Under the pieces are notes generated by a model. The model did no database searches. It had not been told where the DNA came from and was given only the letters and a program-made list of their open reading frames with translations. Source: Nymphaea colorata (lineage: Eukaryota). From it: a stretch of 64,000 bases of DNA. Numbering within the stretch: position 1 is the stretch's first letter; each line of letters begins with the position of its first letter. Location: assembly GCF_008831285.2 (NCBI RefSeq), contig NC_045138.2, positions 22,816,001 to 22,880,000 of the forward strand. The letters run 5' to 3'. Shown piece by piece: positions 50,117-59,700 of the stretch. Position numbers and translations under genes: made by a program.

Positions 50117-50318
50117 TTCAGGTTTAAACCCTTGAGCTAATTGAGTTCAGGTTTGACCCCTTACTTGAACGGATTTGGGCAAGATTGAGTTTAGGTTTGA
50201 CCTCTTACCTGAGCGGGTTACTTTGCATTGTAGGTTTTAACCCATTACCTGCATGGGTTGCTCTGCATGGGTTGCTCTGCATTTCAAGTTTGACCCCTTA
50301 CCTGCTTGTGTTGCTCTC
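50117..50318. repeat. Degenerate tandem array in the retrotransposon 3' UTR
   Basis: About five units of ~30-50 bp with core (A)GGTTTGACCCCTTACCTG, plus GCATGGGTTGCTCT x2. Confidence 0.8.
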
Positions 50319-50460: not shown

Positions 50461-51660
50461 CTAATTGTAGAATTTCTTGAAGTGAATAGTGTTAATAGGA
50501 TCGACAAGTTCCACCCCATCAGTATCAATCAACCGGTATGAATTACGGGGCAAGGCTTCCTTAATATGGGCCTTCCTAGTTTGGTGCCCACTTACCCTAT
50601 GGCTGTTCTCCAAGGTATACTACAAATCATAAGACCAAGTCATTCACTTTAAAGTATCTCTTGATAACTGACTTGGTAAATTGTCTAGCTACCTTTTGGT
50701 GATAGGTTTTAGCGTGCTCAGTCGCTTTTAACTTCTTTTCATCTACCAAATCGAGTTGCATTAGTCTCTTCTACTGATATTAAATAGAGGAAGCTCCATG
50801 AGAAAAGCGAACTTCAAGCGAGTTTTAGTACATGTAATAGTAGAACCACTTCCATTCCATAGACTAGCTCTATTGGAGTAGATTGTTGAAGTTCTCATAG
50901 TGGTGCGATATGTCCACTGAGTGTTTCGCATCTTTTCATGTCAGTCTCTTTCAATTTTTACTGCAGGATCTTATTGGTGGCCTCTGCTTGCCCATTATCT
51001 TGGAGGTAATAAGGAGCTAAAAAATGATGTGTGATACAGTATTTGCTACACAACTACCTCATCTTTTCATTTTTGAAATGAGTATCACTTTCAGATACTA
51101 TATCATGAGGGATTCCAAATATGCAAAGAAGATTTTTGTGAATGAATGATACTACATGATGTCCTTCTACTGTTCTGAGTGTGACGACTTATATCCATTT
51201 GATAAAATAGTCCGTTGCAGCAAGAAAATACTTAGACTGTTAGAAGTTGCAAGGTATATTGGTCCAACTACGTCAAATGCCTACATTAGAAATAGTTAAG
51301 AAGATGTTACAAAATGCAAGCGAGATCCTAATGCATGGATTATTGGAGCATATAGTTGACATTCTTTACATCTTTTGACCAATTGATAACAATTTTTGCA
51401 TAGTAGGTCAATAATATCTTGCTCGAATTATTTGCTTGGTGAGGGCTTGGTAACCAACATGGCTCTCACAGTCTCTTTGATGTGACTCTTCGATGACTTC
51501 CTTTGCCTCATCTTCATTAAGGTATCGAGAGTATTTGGTACCAACTCACGCCTATATAACACTCATGCAAGGATAAAGTACTTTGCCGACATGCGTTGGA
51601 TTGCTTTTTGTTCCTTTTTTAGCATTTTAGTCGAGAATTCTCCGCTCTCAATGTACCTTT
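50461..51660 (-). pseudogene. Gypsy integrase (decayed)
   Basis: EAKEVIEESH..CESH..YY*PTM (Zn finger), NGQAEATNKIL, GKWAPN*EGPY, DPINTIHFKKFYN*. Confidence 0.9.
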
Positions 51661-52281
51661 TGAAAAAATTTACAGGATGAAATTTCTCTGTCTTCCAATC
51701 TGAGGCCTTGTTTGATGATAGAGTAGAATTTAACATGGTAAATTTAACCATGTTTGATGCACATGGTAGTTTTTTGTAGAGTAAAATTAGCCATGTTTGA
51801 TGCATAGGGTAGAAATTTTTTCAGGATTGTTAGTAGTTGTTTTTTTTTTCTTCTCCTTCCCAATTTCACATGGGAACAAATTAGAAAATCATCTTCCAAA
51901 ACAACAAAATGTTGAGGTTTACACCTACGCATTAAGCATGCAGCACCAAAAAATTTAAGGTACAAAAAAAAGTAACACAGTTAGAACCATGACATCCACG
52001 AGTTCAATGTAGTTGACCAAATAGAACATAGAACCATAACACAGTTAAACCAATATGAAAGTCATAAAACCTTAACAAAAGTGTGTATTCCCATCCAAAA
52101 TATAAGTTTAATAAGTACATATCCAAAAAAAAAATGGTAATCACAAAACAAGTAATCCAACATTTGTGGTTGCACTTCCGTTCAACAAACTTCGTGCCTT
52201 TTATTTATTGCTTTGCGATGACATTTTCAATGACTGAAGGTCTACGTACTTACACACCATACATGTTGTGGAGATACTCAT

Positions 52282-52431
52282 TCATGTGATACTCAGCTGC
52301 TTCAATGAATCAAACGATCTGGAGAGGGTGCCCTTGTATCGAAATACTAAAGGTTGGCATCGCACCCAACTATCATATATGCCTCGCGACCGACCTTCGA
52401 AAATGACATGGTACTTTTGGCGAGGCATCAT
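52282..52431 (-). CDS. Small ORF3: RNase H1 N-terminal hybrid-binding (Cauli_VI-like) domain; probably once extended to a hydrophobic C-tail (~52095)
   Basis: MMPRQKYHVIFEGRSRGIYDSWVRCQPLVFRYKGTLSRSFDSL fits Y-x-V-x-x-G-R-x-x-G-[IV]-Y-x-x-W-x-x-C-x-x-x-V-x-x-[YF]-x-G..F. A 1-nt shift continues EAAEYHMNEYL..CWITCFVITIFFLDMYLL, with two TAA. Confidence 0.8.
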   Translation of the reverse strand: MMPRQKYHVIFEGRSRGIYDSWVRCQPLVFRYKGTLSRSFDSLKQLSIT

Positions 52432-53812
52432 CTTCGTTGTCCTATTCAAAACAAAAAAAATGTCAAACAATCAAATGAAACGATAGCCAAAATTCATAAA
52501 TAAACTTACTATTCAATTGATAATCTGTAAACATTTGAGTTGTTATTGTTGTTCTCATAGAATTGTTGCTTCATCGCTTATGTGTTTGGCTTGCAATTTC
52601 TGGTTCGCTTAAGACAAAGATATTATTCGAAGGTGCATCTTCATCAACAAATTACTCAACATTTGGATTGTGTTCAATTATGAAGTTGTGCAATGCGCAT
52701 GTAGCAAGAACAATTTGAACTTGTTTTTGAATGGATACTGCAATTGCATTTTCAATATTGAAAAACGACCTTTAAACATGCCGAAAGTTCTTTCTACTGC
52801 ATTTCAAAGTGATGAATGACTATGGTTGAATAATTCTTCTTGAGTTCTAGGTGAGTGTGCCCCCGGGGTGTTAAACTCGGACATATGATAACGATGCCCT
52901 CGATAAGGTGTTAGCAAACCGACAATATTTGGATATCCCCCATCAGCAAGATAATATTTGCCTACAATTGAACACAAATTATTTATACACTGTTACATGC
53001 TTCTAAAAAAATGCATTGGTTGGTGGAACTACGTACCTTCTGGAACAACAAACGGATCAGTTTGATGATCATGTGCATTGTACAATACTCTTGAGTCTGT
53101 TGCACTTCCTTTCCATCCTGCCAAAACGTAGTAGAATCGAGTGTCAAATCCAACTGCAGCCATGACGTTCTGAGAAATGAATCCTTTTCTATTGTGAAAC
53201 CTTGCTTGATCTGAAGCTGGGACCCATGCAGGTACATGGGTACCATCGATTGCTCCTAAACAATTCTATATGCATATATGCAAGTTAGTCATGTTGAGTT
53301 TACGGTTATAAAATTACCTGAAAATATGAAAAGGATCGTTTAGATCGCTGAATATGTGTTGGCATCTCATCATTGGGCCACCGAACGTAATCGTTACCCA
53401 GCATACATACCGCTCGTAGGGCTAGGCTGACATGTTTACTTATTTTTTGTCTGAAATGTTGAAACGTATTTTGAACGGCACCATTTCGTTCATTATATCC
53501 AATTGTCAAAAGAAAAATAGCTACTTGTTCTTCTACATTAATGTCACGAGCGTCCTCCAATAAATTTCTAGCTCTCAGAGTGTTATACAATGTCATATAT
53601 GCGTACCCTTCCATACGGAGTAAGCCCATACAATTTCTAGGATGACCTCAAAGCATAAGTTGAACAAAAGATGTACTAGCATCTCCAAATGGATGAACAA
53701 TCCTGCTAGATTGAGGTAGTCGTCTTAACCAAAAGAAGATGAAGACATAAGCTAGCCGAATGAAGAAAAGTGTTCGTTCATCGTCGTCATCGAACATGTC
53801 AATATCAACCAT
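52428..53812 (-). pseudogene. Harbinger DDE transposase (HARBI1/DDE_Tnp_4-like)
   Basis: Exons 53812-53318, 53265-53037, 52961-52510, 52441-52428. Motifs VEEQVAIFL, NCLGAIDGTH, GWKGSATDSRV, KYYLADGGY, ELFN..HSSL*NAVERTFG, CALHNFI, MRTTITTQMFTDY. Four in-frame stops and a 1-nt deletion at ~52725. Confidence 0.92.
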
Positions 53813-54026
53813 TTCGACTAAACTGCATGTACATATAACAAAACTTATTGAACAACAAAATTTCAAAGATGTGTTTCAGTATGAACAAGAACAGATTGCA
53901 TGAACAACAACCATTTCAAACAACATCGAAGATCATGGGATTATACTAATAACACACAATAAATGTTTTGAATGACATGAATTATACAAATAATGAGCCA
54001 TTGAATGTATAACAATCAACTCTTAC

Positions 54027-55018
54027 CTACGAATCAGCAAGCTTATGCATCAACCATGACACCCGGTTTGAAGGTGGAAGGTTGACAAATATCATGGAGT
54101 TGGTGCCTTCCGCTAACATGTCCATACTCTTCATTCGCGTACGACTATATAGGAGTCTAGTGTCCAACATCTCTTGCAATATTTCACAACATTTGACAAA
54201 TTGAAACCCTCTAAAAGTACGTGTGAGGGTGTTCACATTTTCTGCTATACCGTTCAACAAATTGTAATATTCGTCAGCATTGGTTGACATGTTCCTTTTT
54301 TACCTATGTGTAGTTCTATTAGTTGTCGTTGTCGGATTTTCAGTTGTAGGAGTTGAAGGTACTGGCGATTGTAGGGGAGGACTATCTATATAAAGTATCT
54401 GTGTGAATGATTGTTCACTTTCAGGTTGCATGTACAGTGGAGTCGATTGAGATGCAGGTGTCGAAGGGAGTGGTTCAGTGTCATCATGTAGCATGATGTT
54501 CAATGTGTCTGCGTCTTTTCCAGTTGCATGGGAATCGCCATACACCTTCGTGAACTCATCATAATATCTCTATAACTTTGGCCCTCTGTACTTTTTCTTA
54601 TTCGGATATTCTGAAAAAAATCATGTGTTTATATATTGAACAAGTAAAGACATGTTAGACAAAACCTAACAGTATGAACTCTATATCTTACCTCAATGTA
54701 GTCACTCCATACTTGGGGGTCGACATCAATACATTTGTTAATTGGGTCATAGCGAAACCCGCTTGTATTCAGAATTTCCTTCATGACTGTTAAGTTAGGT
54801 TTGAAATACTTCAATTTGTTTTTTATTTTGTTTTTACTGAGTTCTGGACCGAATCTATCCATCATGTTTTTTTCAATTGTTGTATACGCTTTAGACTTCA
54901 AACTTCCACCAGATTTCATACCAGGCATGCGTGAATGCTCCACAAGAAGCTGGAATAAGTAGTCCATTTGTGGTTCAATCCATGTAAGATTTTCCCTTGA
55001 TGGACCGTTGTCTTCCAT
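54027..55018 (-). pseudogene. Harbinger ORF1, Myb/SANT-like DNA-binding protein (~300 aa)
   Basis: Exon 55018-54692: LTW..LFQLLVE..LKSKAY..KIKNKLK..LNTSGFRYDP..VWSDYIE. Exon 54610-54027: YPN..KYRG..YDEF..VYGDSHATG, S/T/P-rich linker, FVNLPPSNRVSWL. One 1-nt deletion and two stops. Confidence 0.9.
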
Positions 55019-57134
55019 GGTAATGTTTTGTACAATGTTTCTTCACAACTACTGTTTTCATCATGAAAAAACTTGCATGAAGAAAGTTGATAGACGATAA
55101 CAGGGAAAAGAAACCATATTAGGAAGACAAAAGCAAACGAGCACCCATCTCTAGAAAATCTAAACAACAGACATGCTTGTAACGAACTACCAATGTGATG
55201 CATCAAGCAATAGAGATCGACCATTAGACACATTAGAGAAGAATACTGACATAGCACACACCTAGAAAATTGTATACATGTTGTCCTTCAGCAGTTTCGC
55301 TATCTTATTTTTCTCCCCTATTTTGGGATTACCAGTCAAGCCAATTTTTCAATGAAACATAGACAACTAAAGACTACATAATACATAATAAACTCGACCA
55401 AATAGCACGAACTCATGGCCAACATTCAGCTGAACTACAGTTTTACGTTCTTTCGTATGGGATTTCGTTCAAAAAACTAATTGTGTCCTTGAAATTTCCT
55501 ACCAAAGGCATTGCCCATCGCATGGATATGGCTGCAACATGGTGTAATTAACATTGCAGTATGCTATCAATGGAAGGCAATCCAGTAGAAGAGACAAAAA
55601 GAAATAAAATAACAACCAACAATGTCCATGAAGCGGATGGCAGTCTTGAGGTAGAAAGCACAAGATAAAATTTATAGAAATGAGATCAATCAGGTAAAGA
55701 CATGACATTCTAAACATATTGAGGTTGAAAGTGACAAGTTCGGCCATAAAGATCTATGTAGAAGACCAAGCACGACATCCACCATAGACTAGAGAGACTT
55801 TTCAACATAAAGTACTCATATCAGAAGATCAGGGCATTTATCTCTGTGCACCCTACAGTTGTTGTTTCTCTTCATTTTTAAAATCATGGCAACTTCAAAA
55901 TTTTCAACATGTTGAAGTAGCACAAAGTGATATGTTAACTTCAATTCGACATGACTACTCTAGATAATGTAAGATACACTCATTAAATGTGTTGCATCAC
56001 TGACAGTGCCAACTTCACATAAAAGAAAAATAAATAAATAACTTGCACATCAGCTTAGAATTATCAACTTTGAAGCATGTGTCTATGTCCACATTTTCCA
56101 AGGTTCTTTTTTACCATTATTAAATTGATAGAGATCACATTAAAGTTAGCATCACAAGGATCACTATGTCTTACGAAAGAAAACAGAACTTGGTATTTCT
56201 GCATTGATAAGTAGCAGGAGCTAAAGAAATCAAGAAACAAAGCAAAAATTAAAGGAAATTACCTTTTATCTTGTTAACCAGCCACTTTGTGCCTCCTTCG
56301 ATGCTGGTGGACAATGACCATATTAACCAAAAAGAAAAAGATGTTATCAGCACAATACAAGAAAAACAGAAGTTTGAAGAATAATATAACATAATCATGT
56401 AAAAGCACCTCAAAAAATTAACATAACATGAGCACTTTGTACAGGTTACAGGTTTGCATTTTATGAACAAGAACTAAAAACTTGGATATCAGCTAAAAAA
56501 AATGCACAATTGCAATACACAAAATAGCTACCATGTATATGATTAGAGTTCTAAAAAGTAAAAACCTTAAATAACCAGCATGAAAACATAAAACATGGCA
56601 AAGCTGATTTCAAGACCATTTAACGTAGTTTATGGTGTCATGAACATTTGGACGTTTCTCTATAGAGATAGGTTTGACCATTAATATTGCTAAGTTAGCA
56701 GCAACATGAGGATTGTAATGAGCTCTTGATGGCTCTAAAATAATCCATGCACGCAGTGCATACAGAACAAGAGTTAGAGACCATCGGAATGTGGCAGATA
56801 TAATGGATGACACATGATAGTCATGTACTATCTTATTCCTCAAAATTGTCATGGAAAGTGCACCTAAAATAAACGATGTAAAACAGTAAGCAGGGCTAAT
56901 TTCTTGTTCTGATGTATTCAAGAGCAAGGTTAATTTCCTGTTTTGAGAGGTATACCTGAATAAAGGAGCAGCGAAGAGTAAGAAGATCAAATGTCCTACT
57001 GGTATTGAAGGTTTGCATATGAAAAACATCAAAGAGGAAAGATGAGTTTTTGATGGTTTGCGTGTGAGAGAGTGACATGTAGAGGCACGTAGGGCTCACC
57101 TGGCACTGCGATCAGGTGACATTGGGTTTGAGAG

Positions 57135-57595
57135 GAGAGACCTGTGCAGCGTCAGAGGATAGAAACAAGAGTGCAAGAGAGGAGGAGACACAGCGAGAGA
57201 GGAGGAGACACAGCGACATAAGGGAGACGCAGTGACAGAGGAGAGATCTGTGCAGCAGCAAAGGTGAGGAACAAGACAATGAGAGAGGAGGAGACGCAGC
57301 AATGGAGGGGAGACGTAGCGAGAGAGGAGGAAATGCAGCGACAGAGGGGAGATGCAGCGAATAGAGAGGAGACGCAACGAGAGAGGAGACACTATCAACA
57401 GCAAAGGTGAGGAACAAGAGAGTGACAGAGGAGGAGACGTAGTGACAAAGGGGAGACGCAGCGAGAGTGAGAGCGGAGAGACCTGTGCAGCGAGAGAGGA
57501 GAGGTTCCGTAGAGTGCAAGGGAGGAAGAGACGCAGACCTGTGTAGCGAGAGAGGAGAGGTTTCGTCGAGTGCGAGGGAGGAGAAGACGCATCGA
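57135..57595. repeat. Degenerate ~20-bp purine-rich tandem array inside the Harbinger 5' end
   Basis: Repeated GAGAGGAGGAGAC(A/G)CAGCGA-type units with higher-order recurrence (CAGCAAAGGTGAGGAACAAGA and GGAGACCTGTGCAGCG-like blocks recur). Confidence 0.85.
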
Positions 57596-57673
57596 GATTG
57601 TGCTCGACAATGGGTGTCCACGGGAAAGAGGGGAAAAGTTGAGAGTCCTAACAGCTCTTAATTTTTTCTCCAC

Positions 57674-57706
57674 GAAAAAGTCCGACCTCACAGGTCGGAC
57701 TTTTTC
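57674..57706. other. Perfect 15-bp-stem hairpin near the Harbinger right end
   Basis: GAAAAAGTCCGACCT-CAC-AGGTCGGACTTTTTC. Confidence 0.95.
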
Positions 57707-57855
57707 ACACATGAAATTTCACCCGACCACATTTCATTTTTCGACTGAAATTTCATGTCGTTTGATGCATGGTGAAGTGAACGGGTGAAAGTTCACACGC
57801 CCATACAGTTTTCAACCAATGCACAGGGTTTTTTCTATACATCAAACGGGGCCTT

Positions 57856-58120
57856 AATATAGCACCAACTTTTCATCTTTGACTTGTCATTCACTTGAAT
57901 GATGATAAGCTGAGAGTCGTTGAAGGCGTGCACTCTTTTTGTTTGGAAACTCAATAAAAAACAAAGTCCTTGTATAAGGGCCTCATATTCAACCATGTTA
58001 TGGGTAAATGAAAAGTTGAGTTTCAAAGAGTATGGGATCATTTCATCTTCCAGAGTTATAAGTAAAATGCATTTACCTACTCCCATCACGTTCTTGGATC
58101 CATCAAAGTGCATCTTTCAT
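57856..58120 (-). pseudogene. Additional (archaeal-type) RNase H domain of the Tat lineage, C-terminal part missing
   Basis: MHFDGSK..GVG..LNFSFTHNMVEYEALIQGL..DSQLII.QVN..VKDEKL, ending at the Harbinger TIR. Confidence 0.88.
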
Positions 58121-59700
58121 ATCGAAATTGGTTCCAATCCTAATACATGTTTGCATGGAAACTCATCATCTGTTTTCACTTTTTCGTATTGGGGAATGCC
58201 TGTCAATTGATCTGCAATTGCTTGTCCTTTGATTGACTTCTGGGACTCATATTCAAAATCATGTTGCATCAACAAAACATGCCATTTAGTGATGCACCCA
58301 TTAAGGAATGGCTGCTCTAAGATATATTTAAGAGGATTTAGCTTTGAGGGTATCTTTACTTCGCAAGCTAATAAATAATATCTCAAATTCTGACACATTC
58401 AAATCAATGCTTGACAAATTTTTTTCATTAGAGAGTACTTTTTTTCATACTGGACAAAAGTTTTGCTCATGTAATATAATGCATGCTTGATGCTACTTCC
58501 TTTCTCATATTGTACCAAAAAATTACCACATGTTGACTCATTCACTGTGATGTAAAGCAGCAATGGTCTACTCAACACTAGGGGTTTTAAGATTGGTGGA
58601 TTTTAGAAGGTATTCATTAATCCTTTTAAATGACTGTTGGCACTCAAAACTCCATTCAAATTTGATATCCTTCCTCAGCAGCTGGTTGAATGGTTTGTAT
58701 CTCATGGCTAGATTAAAAATGAATCATCTGATGGACTGTATTTGCCCCTACAAACATCGTAGTTCCTTGATGTTGGTAGGTAGTGGCATATCAATGATCG
58801 CTTTGGCTTTGGTCAGATCCATCTCATTCTCCCTCTTACTAACCATGAAACCTAAAAGTTTACCTGATTCAACCCCAAATACACATTTTGGAGATTCAAA
58901 TGAAGCTTGTACTGTAAGAGTCTCTCAAACACCTGGGTAGGGGTTTCAATGTGGTCTTCTCTTGCCGTAGATTTAACTAATATATCATCGATATATGCAT
59001 CCATTATTTTGTGCATTTGGCCGTGGAAGATAGCGGCCATAGCTTTTTGATAAGCTGCTCCTGCATTTTTTAATCCAAATGACATCACTGTATAACAAAA
59101 AGTGTCCTAGGTTGTAATAAAAGTGGTGTTAGGTTGATCATTGACTGTTAATTTTATTTGATTATATCCCGAATATCCATCCCTAAAATAGAATATGGCA
59201 TGGCCTACATACTGTCTACTAACAAATCAATGTTTGGAAGTGGGTAATCACCTTTTGGTGTGGCTTTGTTCAGGTCTCGAAAGTTAATGCATTGTTTGAC
59301 TTTGGCATTCTTCTAGGGGACCACCGCAATATTAGCGAACCACCCAGGGTAATCAATTGCACGAATAAATTTTGCCTTTAGAATGTCTTCTAATCCTTCC
59401 TTTACGATTCCTTCTAGTCGATGATCAAGCTTGCATAATTTTTGTTTAACTGACCTGCAACTACGACTTAGGGGCAAATGATATTCAACCAGCTGGGGGT
59501 CTAAATCCGGCATATTCATAGGTCCATGCGAAAGCCTCTTGGTGCTTTATAAGAAAATCCATCAATTTTTCTTCTCGTCTGCTAACAAACTGGTGCCAAC
59601 TTGAAGGATCTTAGGATTCTCACTAGTTCCAATGTTAATCTCTTCAATTGGGTCGTTAACAAAATACGAGGGTTGTTCTTGTTCTTAAATCTGAGTAAAT
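58117..59700 (-). pseudogene. Gypsy reverse transcriptase + RNase H (decayed)
   Basis: MPDLDPQLVEYHLP..VKQK, INFRDLNKATPK, MSFGLKNAGAAYQKAM..YIDDILVKS, YYMSK..E..Y, KSIKGQAIADQL. Confidence 0.93.

Follow-up and report, generated by a model that had tools for sequence, protein, structure and literature searches.

The window analysed here is a stretch of 64,000 nucleotides from Nymphaea colorata (NCBI RefSeq assembly GCF_008831285.2, contig NC_045138.2, positions 22,816,001 to 22,880,000), and all coordinates given below refer to it. It harbors a PIF/Harbinger element at 51704-57853 (6,150 nt) with three open reading frames (ORFs), all on the minus strand, which encode a Myb/SANT protein (ORF1), a DDE transposase (ORF2), and a small protein with a Cauli_VI domain, i.e., the N-terminal domain of RNase H1 (ORF3). 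An inspection made without database searches (hereafter, the sequence-only reading) had placed an apparently tricistronic transposon at 52095..57620; the location was right, and the real limits lie beyond those positions. Its assignment to PIF/Harbinger agrees with the terminal inverted repeats (TIRs), the PF13359 domain with its catalytic triad, and the separate Myb/SANT ORF (PF12776). Stops and frameshifts are present in each of the three ORFs, as had been noted; the locus represents a degenerate member of a Nymphaea PIF/Harbinger family that carries a third gene. No second copy of the element was found within the window.

ORF1 (54027-55018, minus strand) comprises two exons (55018-54692 and 54610-54027) separated by an intron at 54691-54611, and contains one frameshift and two stops; its product matches Myb_DNA-bind_3 (PF12776) in Pfam with an E-value of 1.5e-13. 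ORF2 (52428-53812, minus strand) is made up of four exons (53812-53318, 53265-53037, 52961-52510, and 52441-52428) and contains several stops and one frameshift. The transposase matches DDE_Tnp_4 (PF13359; Pfam E 8.8e-7), retains all the catalytic-triad motifs (DGTH, DGGY, and ERTF), and has matches named HARBI1/ALP1-like. It is 68-69% identical to the N. colorata gene model P0005, and a piece of it is 81-88% identical to its nearest proteins, from Nymphaea thermarum and N. colorata. At two frameshift sites of this copy, related contigs have an extra base.

ORF3 (52108-52431, minus strand; about 108 residues, the 3' end being placed according to its relatives) is composed of the Cauli_VI/RNase H1 N-terminal domain, a variable linker, and a hydrophobic C-terminal segment, and is interrupted by one frameshift near 52303 and by two stops. 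It matches Cauli_VI (PF01693) in Pfam with an E-value of 8.8e-9, and the N-terminal domain of yeast RNase H1 (1qhk) matches it at 9e-4; in the ORF3 proteins scanned with Pfam, Cauli_VI was the only domain, with no catalytic RNase H domain. The closest match, 84% identical, comes from Nymphaea, as do all ten matches of a word-based search; an exhaustive search retrieved six further close models, and then general Cauli_VI proteins. Over the ten pairs formed by five models, identity averages 0.80 in the domain and 0.43 in the linker, and between subfamilies about 0.75 and 0.25, respectively. The third ORF, which the sequence-only reading had proposed, thus has a PF01693 domain better kept than the linker across relatives, and on sequence grounds we regard it as a genuine conserved gene of the family. 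The hydrophobic C-terminal segment is present in this copy and in models P0006, P0106, and P0110.

Other copies carry traces of the same arrangement. In model P0009, Myb, DDE, and part of Cauli_VI follow one another in the same three-gene order, pieces of the transposase are joined to ORF3 in P0006, P0013, and P0114, and P0007 and P0109 have consecutive locus tags and contigs of equal length. In Pfam, no DDE or Myb family was detected in any of the 145 proteins of a representative search, though P0114 visibly holds a short transposase piece. Outside the family, four of the 139 matches (P0224, P0228, P0241, and P0134; 130-170 residues, with Cauli_VI at the N-terminus) have the same domain-plus-tail build; from their sequences, they are possibly accessory genes of other elements. 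A query of the ESM Atlas with one of these four proteins yields Streptophyta clusters whose members have 106-126 residues and Cauli_VI alone, and such small Cauli_VI-only proteins form many Streptophyta clusters; the same query with ORF3 itself gave no match. A tree of the domain (54 columns, the 60 best-scoring of 150 domains, no P6 included) places ORF3 with the domain-plus-tail proteins, with weak support (86/82). No relatives of ORF3 were found in the prokaryote genomes searched, nor any of the transposase or ORF3 among the viral contigs searched, and none of 80 metagenome transposase loci has a Cauli_VI ORF, many of these loci being short and the profile narrow. The predicted structure of ORF3 is of low confidence (mean pLDDT 55), and fold searches with it returned nothing at E 0.001.

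The junctions between the ORFs were compared with contigs from six out of 20 sequencing runs (X1, X2, X14, X18, X19, and X20), whose depth was not used for copy number or expression. X1 and X2 are presumably DNA (organisms A and B); X14, X18, X19, and X20 come from one sample of organism K and were taken as RNA, since their introns are cleanly removed and the DNA runs of A and B lack those joints. The joint of the ORF1 intron (54610-54692, CT..AC) is found in X14 and X18 and in neither X1 nor X2, and that of transposase intron 1 in X18, X19, and X20. At the acceptor of intron 2, contigs of X14, X18, X19, and X20 exit into sequence resembling that of the upstream exon. Splice sites were scored on a rough scale of our own, and the ranks given below are over all GT (387) and all AG (266) in the element.

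The spacer between the transposase and ORF3 (spacer 2, or J2; 52442-52509, minus strand) is a 68-nt intron with GT at 52509 and AG at 52442, whose acceptor lies 10 nt before the ORF3 ATG. Once it is removed, the transposase ends in ...DYQLNRQRR*, with a TGA (52430-52428) that overlaps both the ATG at 52431 (ATGA) and the ATG at 52428 (TGATG). This is how the sequence-only reading had described it (68 nt, GT..AG, and the ORF2 stop overlapping the ORF3 ATG after removal). The same reading had taken the two spacers as the only intergenic DNA; the lengths hold, but spacer 2 is not purely intergenic, as it splits the transposase frame with four codons left before the stop. Its donor ranks 13 out of 387, and the acceptors of spacers 1 and 2 rank 10 and 9 out of 266.

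One contig of X19 carries the joint 52440-53036 (CT..AC, 595 nt skipped, side 54, depth 56.7), in which the donor of transposase exon 2 is connected to the ORF3 acceptor; the joint does not occur in X18, X20, or the DNA run X2. The resulting product omits the last catalytic exon and ends in PEGQRR*, the same end as that of the N. colorata model P0004 (GQRR*). A second N. colorata model, P0005, ends in YQLNRERR*, which is the junction described by the sequence-only reading. With the acceptor joined in X19, and with P0004 and P0005 ending at the overlapping stop, the proposal that spacer 2 is an intron is borne out. Furthermore, P0046 (DNEDD...) reaches the ORF3 acceptor from a third donor, and P0042 is an unspliced read-through; at least two donors serve this acceptor. 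A single contig in X18/X20 continues past DYQ to IRRTDGR*, where ATG AAG overlaps the stop, i.e., with a different spacer and the same frame, three codons of the next ORF being visible. In the window, skipping 53036-52442 cuts the transposase before two of its three catalytic residues, as in P0004; the exon-skipped transposase is a candidate repressor isoform, as judged from its predicted product.

The residues that precede the ORF3 methionine are TTK, TTM, or TMK in all 13 models that have any, the other four of the 17 starting at the methionine itself; the 13 predicted proteins fit the same acceptor and 10-nt spacer. As regards the conservation of spacing in relatives, which had been suggested as a check, the 10-nt spacer of J2 recurs in these 13 models and the overlap in P0004, P0005, and one contig, but four models are in-frame fusions. 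Overall, a transposase-ORF3 junction that is used and recurs as a splice plus a stop-start overlap is well supported.

The spacer between ORF1 and the transposase (spacer 1, or J1; 53823-54026, minus strand) also has the structure that had been described, i.e., 204 nt from GT 54026 to AG 53823, with the ORF1 stop 10 nt before the ORF2 ATG once it is removed. The TAG of ORF1 (54029-54027) is followed immediately by GTAAGA, and the 10 nt left between this stop and the ATG at 53812 are TTTAGTCGAA. The donor ranks 5 out of 387; among the 306 stop triplets of the element, that of ORF1 is the only one with GTRAG directly after it, and three out of 188 ATGs have an acceptor as strong within 11 nt, at a threshold set from the J1 and J2 sites themselves. 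The spliced form is another matter: among the joints listed (15 of 99, and 15 of 27 in a later list), 53822-54027 does not appear, and contigs cross spacer 1 without splicing (53577-54371; records 11 and 19), running unbroken from ORF1 into the transposase. Since intron retention was reported for 112 of 156 PIF cDNAs in the data cited from PMC5543537, contigs of this kind say little against splicing at J1.

The J1 donor and the J1 acceptor each coincide with contig ends. A spliced transposase contig starts at 53825 with the CAG of that acceptor, a weak hint of an upstream exon ending in CAG, like that of the 57099 donor described below, rather than in TAG. Two contigs per run exit ORF1 precisely at the J1 donor. 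If their consensus is resolved as a mixture of two contigs, it conflicts with the start of the transposase at 8-10 out of 30 positions and with the ORF3 exon at one; in controls, a fit as good as that to the ORF3 exon was obtained at two out of 56 AG|G sites and at 30 out of 6119 positions. This gives a hint of an isoform that passes from ORF1 to ORF3 and skips the transposase. One of the two contigs past the donor continues in sequence not placed in the element, and local alignment of the loose end at 54026 to the element was no better than that of shuffled sequences (41 out of 100 as good).

In order to place these junctions, we considered other PIF loci. According to Myb matches, the 80 metagenome transposase loci divide into 13 with ORF1 first, seven with the transposase first, 21 convergent, and 39 unclassified. 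With ORF1 first in 13 of them, a tandem order is in itself nothing unusual. An acceptor-like site lies 0-21 nt before the transposase ATG in five of the seven transposase-first loci, six of the 13 ORF1-first loci, and three of the 21 convergent ones, the background being 157 out of 1778 ATGs in general; among the loci with such a site are L045, L068, L043, L052, L027, L033, L038, L024, L051, L014, L009, L006, and L069. In L038 and L024 the downstream ORF1 ATG, too, has one, 3-4 nt before it, and donor-like sites stand just past the transposase stop in several of these plant-type PIF loci. The pattern suggests that plant-type PIFs commonly have an acceptor right before the start codon, whatever the gene order. 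Since it also occurs in transposase-first loci, where only a non-coding leader could supply the donor, the J1 acceptor needs no reinitiation as its explanation.

A candidate promoter and leader exon occupies 57100-57600 (minus strand), a stretch of CT-rich subterminal repeats ending at the donor CAG|GTGAG (GT at 57099; rank 7 out of 387), although its use as a leader is a prediction. The sequence-only reading had placed this donor near the right TIR; it is present, about 740 nt inside that TIR. Model P0001 joins sequence similar to the 57100-57600 region to the ORF3 acceptor. The 5' subterminal region (57125-57590) holds several families of CT-rich direct repeats of 39-72 nt, which are candidate binding sites of the ORF1 protein or promoter elements. 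The leader is about 2 kb from ORF1, and the interval contains a captured host exon of an At5g01610-like gene (56262-56317, minus strand; PDB 1ydu, E 3.5e-6; within 55150-57000); contigs of organism K depart from the element at both of its ends.

The TIRs, of 14 nt each and matching at 12 out of 14 positions, lie at 51704-51717 on the 3' side of the genes and at 57840-57853 on the 5' side (neither has a strand). Their outer flanks are TGA (51701-51703) and TTA (57854-57856), respectively, the target duplication of PIF/Harbinger being TAA/TTA; since the two flanks differ, the site may have been altered after the insertion. Decayed frames resembling long terminal repeat retrotransposon pol flank the element at 57835-58940 and 51563-51703. 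The 5' flank matches RVT_3 and, weakly, RT_RNaseH (E 0.0048) in Pfam; hence the element appears from these matches to be seated in retrotransposon pol sequence. A 22-nt motif has two copies near the 3' TIR (51723-51808) and one in the same orientation near the 5' TIR (57748-57769). Many contigs depart from the element at 51717-51769, which suggests other elements having only this end in common with it. Outside the element, 50117-50312 holds short direct repeats of 28-36 nt with spacings of 44 and 93.

As to how the three proteins are made, we favor, with our confidence evenly balanced, a single alternatively spliced transcription unit, in which the ORF met by the ribosome is set by the acceptors that precede the ATGs of the transposase and of ORF3 by 10 nt. 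The unit would have its promoter and its leader exon close to the 5' TIR and a common 3' end beyond ORF3. An exon junction far behind a stop codon invites nonsense-mediated decay (NMD) according to the 50-nt rule; the donor at the ORF1 stop would let the ORF1 mRNA shed the downstream sequence without leaving such a junction, hence avoiding decay. Introns at a stop codon (J1) and just before the transposase stop (J2) would both occupy positions that do not trigger NMD. The transposase mRNA would derive mostly from the non-coding leader spliced to the J1 acceptor, as in PIFs without an upstream ORF, and further isoforms would lack either the whole transposase or just its last catalytic exon. ORF3 would be translated from isoforms that place it first or, less abundantly, by ribosomes reinitiating at the ATGA overlap. 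The predicted protein would be anchored in a membrane, bind RNA:DNA or double-stranded RNA, and act on the fate of the RNA of the element and not on cut-and-paste chemistry.

Several points weigh against this account. The X19 joint is a single contig in one run out of three, flagged 'between: not known', and every joined form derives from a single sample of a different organism (K), the RNA nature of which is deduced; contigs, moreover, cannot show starts, ends, or whole transcripts. No join from the leader to an acceptor is among the joints listed. A joint in X18 (52441-52515) would give a different frame (DNEDD) and is absent from the later joint list. Four models (P0006, P0013, P0114, and P0109) use a donor located 4 nt further downstream, which yields an in-frame transposase-ORF3 fusion, and the Nymphaea gene models are predictions. 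The hydrophobic tail passes 1.6 in two out of ten models plus this copy, many models being short or spliced elsewhere. The resolution of the J1-donor consensus into a mixture is post hoc and rests on a guessed tie-breaking of the tool. In the metagenome loci, the acceptor score and the choice of start codons are our own, and several loci are near-duplicates.

The sequence-only reading had a different model, in which the main product is one spliced ORF1-transposase-ORF3 mRNA with reinitiation at both junctions, possibly helped by a TAV-like ORF3. Close stop-start pairs do occur at both junctions, the ATGA overlap recurs, and all start codons have an A at -3, the strong context of ORF1 speaking against leaky scanning; however, the J1 join is absent from the joints listed, contigs span J1 unspliced, and NMD would be expected to target an mRNA in which three junctions follow the ORF1 stop at a long distance. 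No UGGGA motif (like that of termination upstream ribosome-binding sites) was found in the last 120 nt of ORF1, of transposase exon 2, or of exon 3 of this copy, and no unusual fold in the 120 nt before either stop; reinitiation of the TAV type is described as working without that motif, although a special factor is described as normally needed after a long ORF. For TAV, the account in PMC5902531 gives an RNase H1-like motif in the dsR domain and reinitiation aided by close stop-start pairs, and in a viral fold search the caulimovirus P6 proteins ranked 1, 4, 8, and 38. With a best E-value of 0.073 from a model of mean pLDDT 55, these matches are not significant and do not bear out a specific kinship of ORF3 with P6, and ORF3 has about 108 residues versus about 520 for P6. 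In favor of the tricistronic model, the rice Ping cDNA, which holds both genes, gives both proteins from one construct (as reported in PMC2836001). We consider the tricistronic mRNA unlikely as the main product, and alternative splicing likelier than a tricistronic reinitiating message. What stands of the single mRNA is the joined transposase-ORF3 form, whereas the ORF1-transposase join is not among the joints listed, J1 is spanned unspliced, and a second donor reaches the ORF3 acceptor by exon skipping.

A different explanation is that ORF1 is a separate gene and that an internal promoter in its 3' half or in spacer 1 drives the transposase, which alone would share a transcript with ORF3; J1 would then be an intron in the 5' untranslated region of a monocistronic message. 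Hancock et al. presume such a promoter for Ping and call PIF genes apparently independent (in the statements taken from PMC2836001), and the unspliced contigs over spacer 1, the contig past the J1 donor that is unplaced in the element, and an AATAAG inside spacer 1 at 53849 are in line with it. Yet records 11 and 19 run unbroken from ORF1 into the transposase, though a two-gene contig is not proof of one transcript, and a 3' end together with a promoter would be a tight fit in 204 nt; we find this arrangement rather improbable. ORF3 might also be a passenger, i.e., a piece of a captured host gene in the 3' untranslated region, rarely translated or serving only as a C-terminal extension of the transposase. 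The element does capture host sequence (the At5g01610 exon), as is known for grape PIFs (from the parts of PMC2528002 used here), no Cauli_VI ORF was found in the 80 metagenome loci (many short, the profile narrow), and, besides the fusions in the four models, a +4 donor at 52505 would give an in-frame fusion here. That donor, however, is weak (rank 95 out of 387), and no fusion joint through it is among those listed; between subfamilies, conservation is much higher in the domain than in the linker, and both the many Streptophyta clusters of Cauli_VI-only proteins and the four non-family matches of domain-plus-tail build speak against a mere passenger, which we hold to be very unlikely.

The features of the element can be compared with known systems. 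Like rice Ping and Pong, Medicago MtPH, and grape Pifvine, it has short TIRs, a Myb/SANT ORF1, and a DDE transposase interrupted by two internal introns; PMC2213677 gives the tandem ORF1-transposase order for five of 11 MtPH core elements, and PMC2528002 describes captured host gene pieces in the 5' region of grape PIFs. It differs from what these sources describe in the third conserved Cauli_VI ORF, the spliced transposase-ORF3 stop-start overlap, and the strong donor at the ORF1 stop. Harbinger-type elements bearing an extra gene are described in PMC12730594, namely HarbingerS (SET domain) and PHISTA (TET/JBP); those extra genes encode enzymes that modify chromatin or DNA and belong to elements of oomycetes and rust fungi, whereas here a flowering plant element has a non-catalytic domain of the RNA-duplex-binding type with a hydrophobic tail. 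With caulimovirus P6/TAV and the hybrid-binding domain of RNase H1, ORF3 has PF01693 in common, but it lacks both the RNase H catalytic domain and the rest of P6.

With respect to expression, CACTA/Spm makes several proteins from one DNA transposon transcript by alternative splicing (as cited in PMC2836001), which resembles the splicing-based reading preferred here; it is a different superfamily, with which PIF elements, whose genes appear independent, are contrasted in the same source, so that an alternatively spliced PIF would be new. The statement that two-gene PIF transcripts were undescribed was too strong, given the rice Ping cDNA, for which an internal promoter was presumed, and Anopheles APLG1/APM1, a PIF-derived transposase and DNA-binding gene annotated as dicistronic on one spliced transcript (according to PMC9710019); the latter are domesticated insect genes with two ORFs and no third gene. 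In green algae, bicistronic nuclear mRNAs are translated via leaky scanning, as outlined in PMC11892635. In the open-access literature, we found no description of a PIF carrying Cauli_VI, of this third gene, or of this junction layout. What is new, in a known superfamily, is thus a PIF/Harbinger element with three genes and a supported spliced transposase-ORF3 overlap, its ORF1-transposase join being unproven.

The sources consulted leave open how the second gene of tandem PIF/Pong elements is expressed, and they also present mPing/Pong as a plant engineering tool; the junctions of this family are compact and have defined splice sites, which makes the question directly testable. Through this family, a set of small, uncharacterised Cauli_VI proteins is also linked to a transposon. 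According to PMC5902531, the dsR region of TAV from cauliflower mosaic virus contains the RNase H1-like motif; during reinitiation it binds TOR, eL18, and eL13, and RNAi suppression does not require it. If ORF3 works like TAV, this favors a translational role over an anti-silencing one. If ORF3 promoted reinitiation, it would be a minimal tool, of 108 residues, for polycistronic expression in plants. A bolder scenario, to which we assign little credence, is that of a spliced tricistronic mRNA with a self-encoded TAV-like helper, whose Cauli_VI domain would recruit TOR or ribosomal proteins, or shield the RNA from NMD, and so enable reinitiation across both junctions. If this were true, a nuclear plant DNA transposon would use a translation strategy in the style of the caulimoviruses, and the numerous small Cauli_VI proteins found in land plants might be transposon helpers of this kind.

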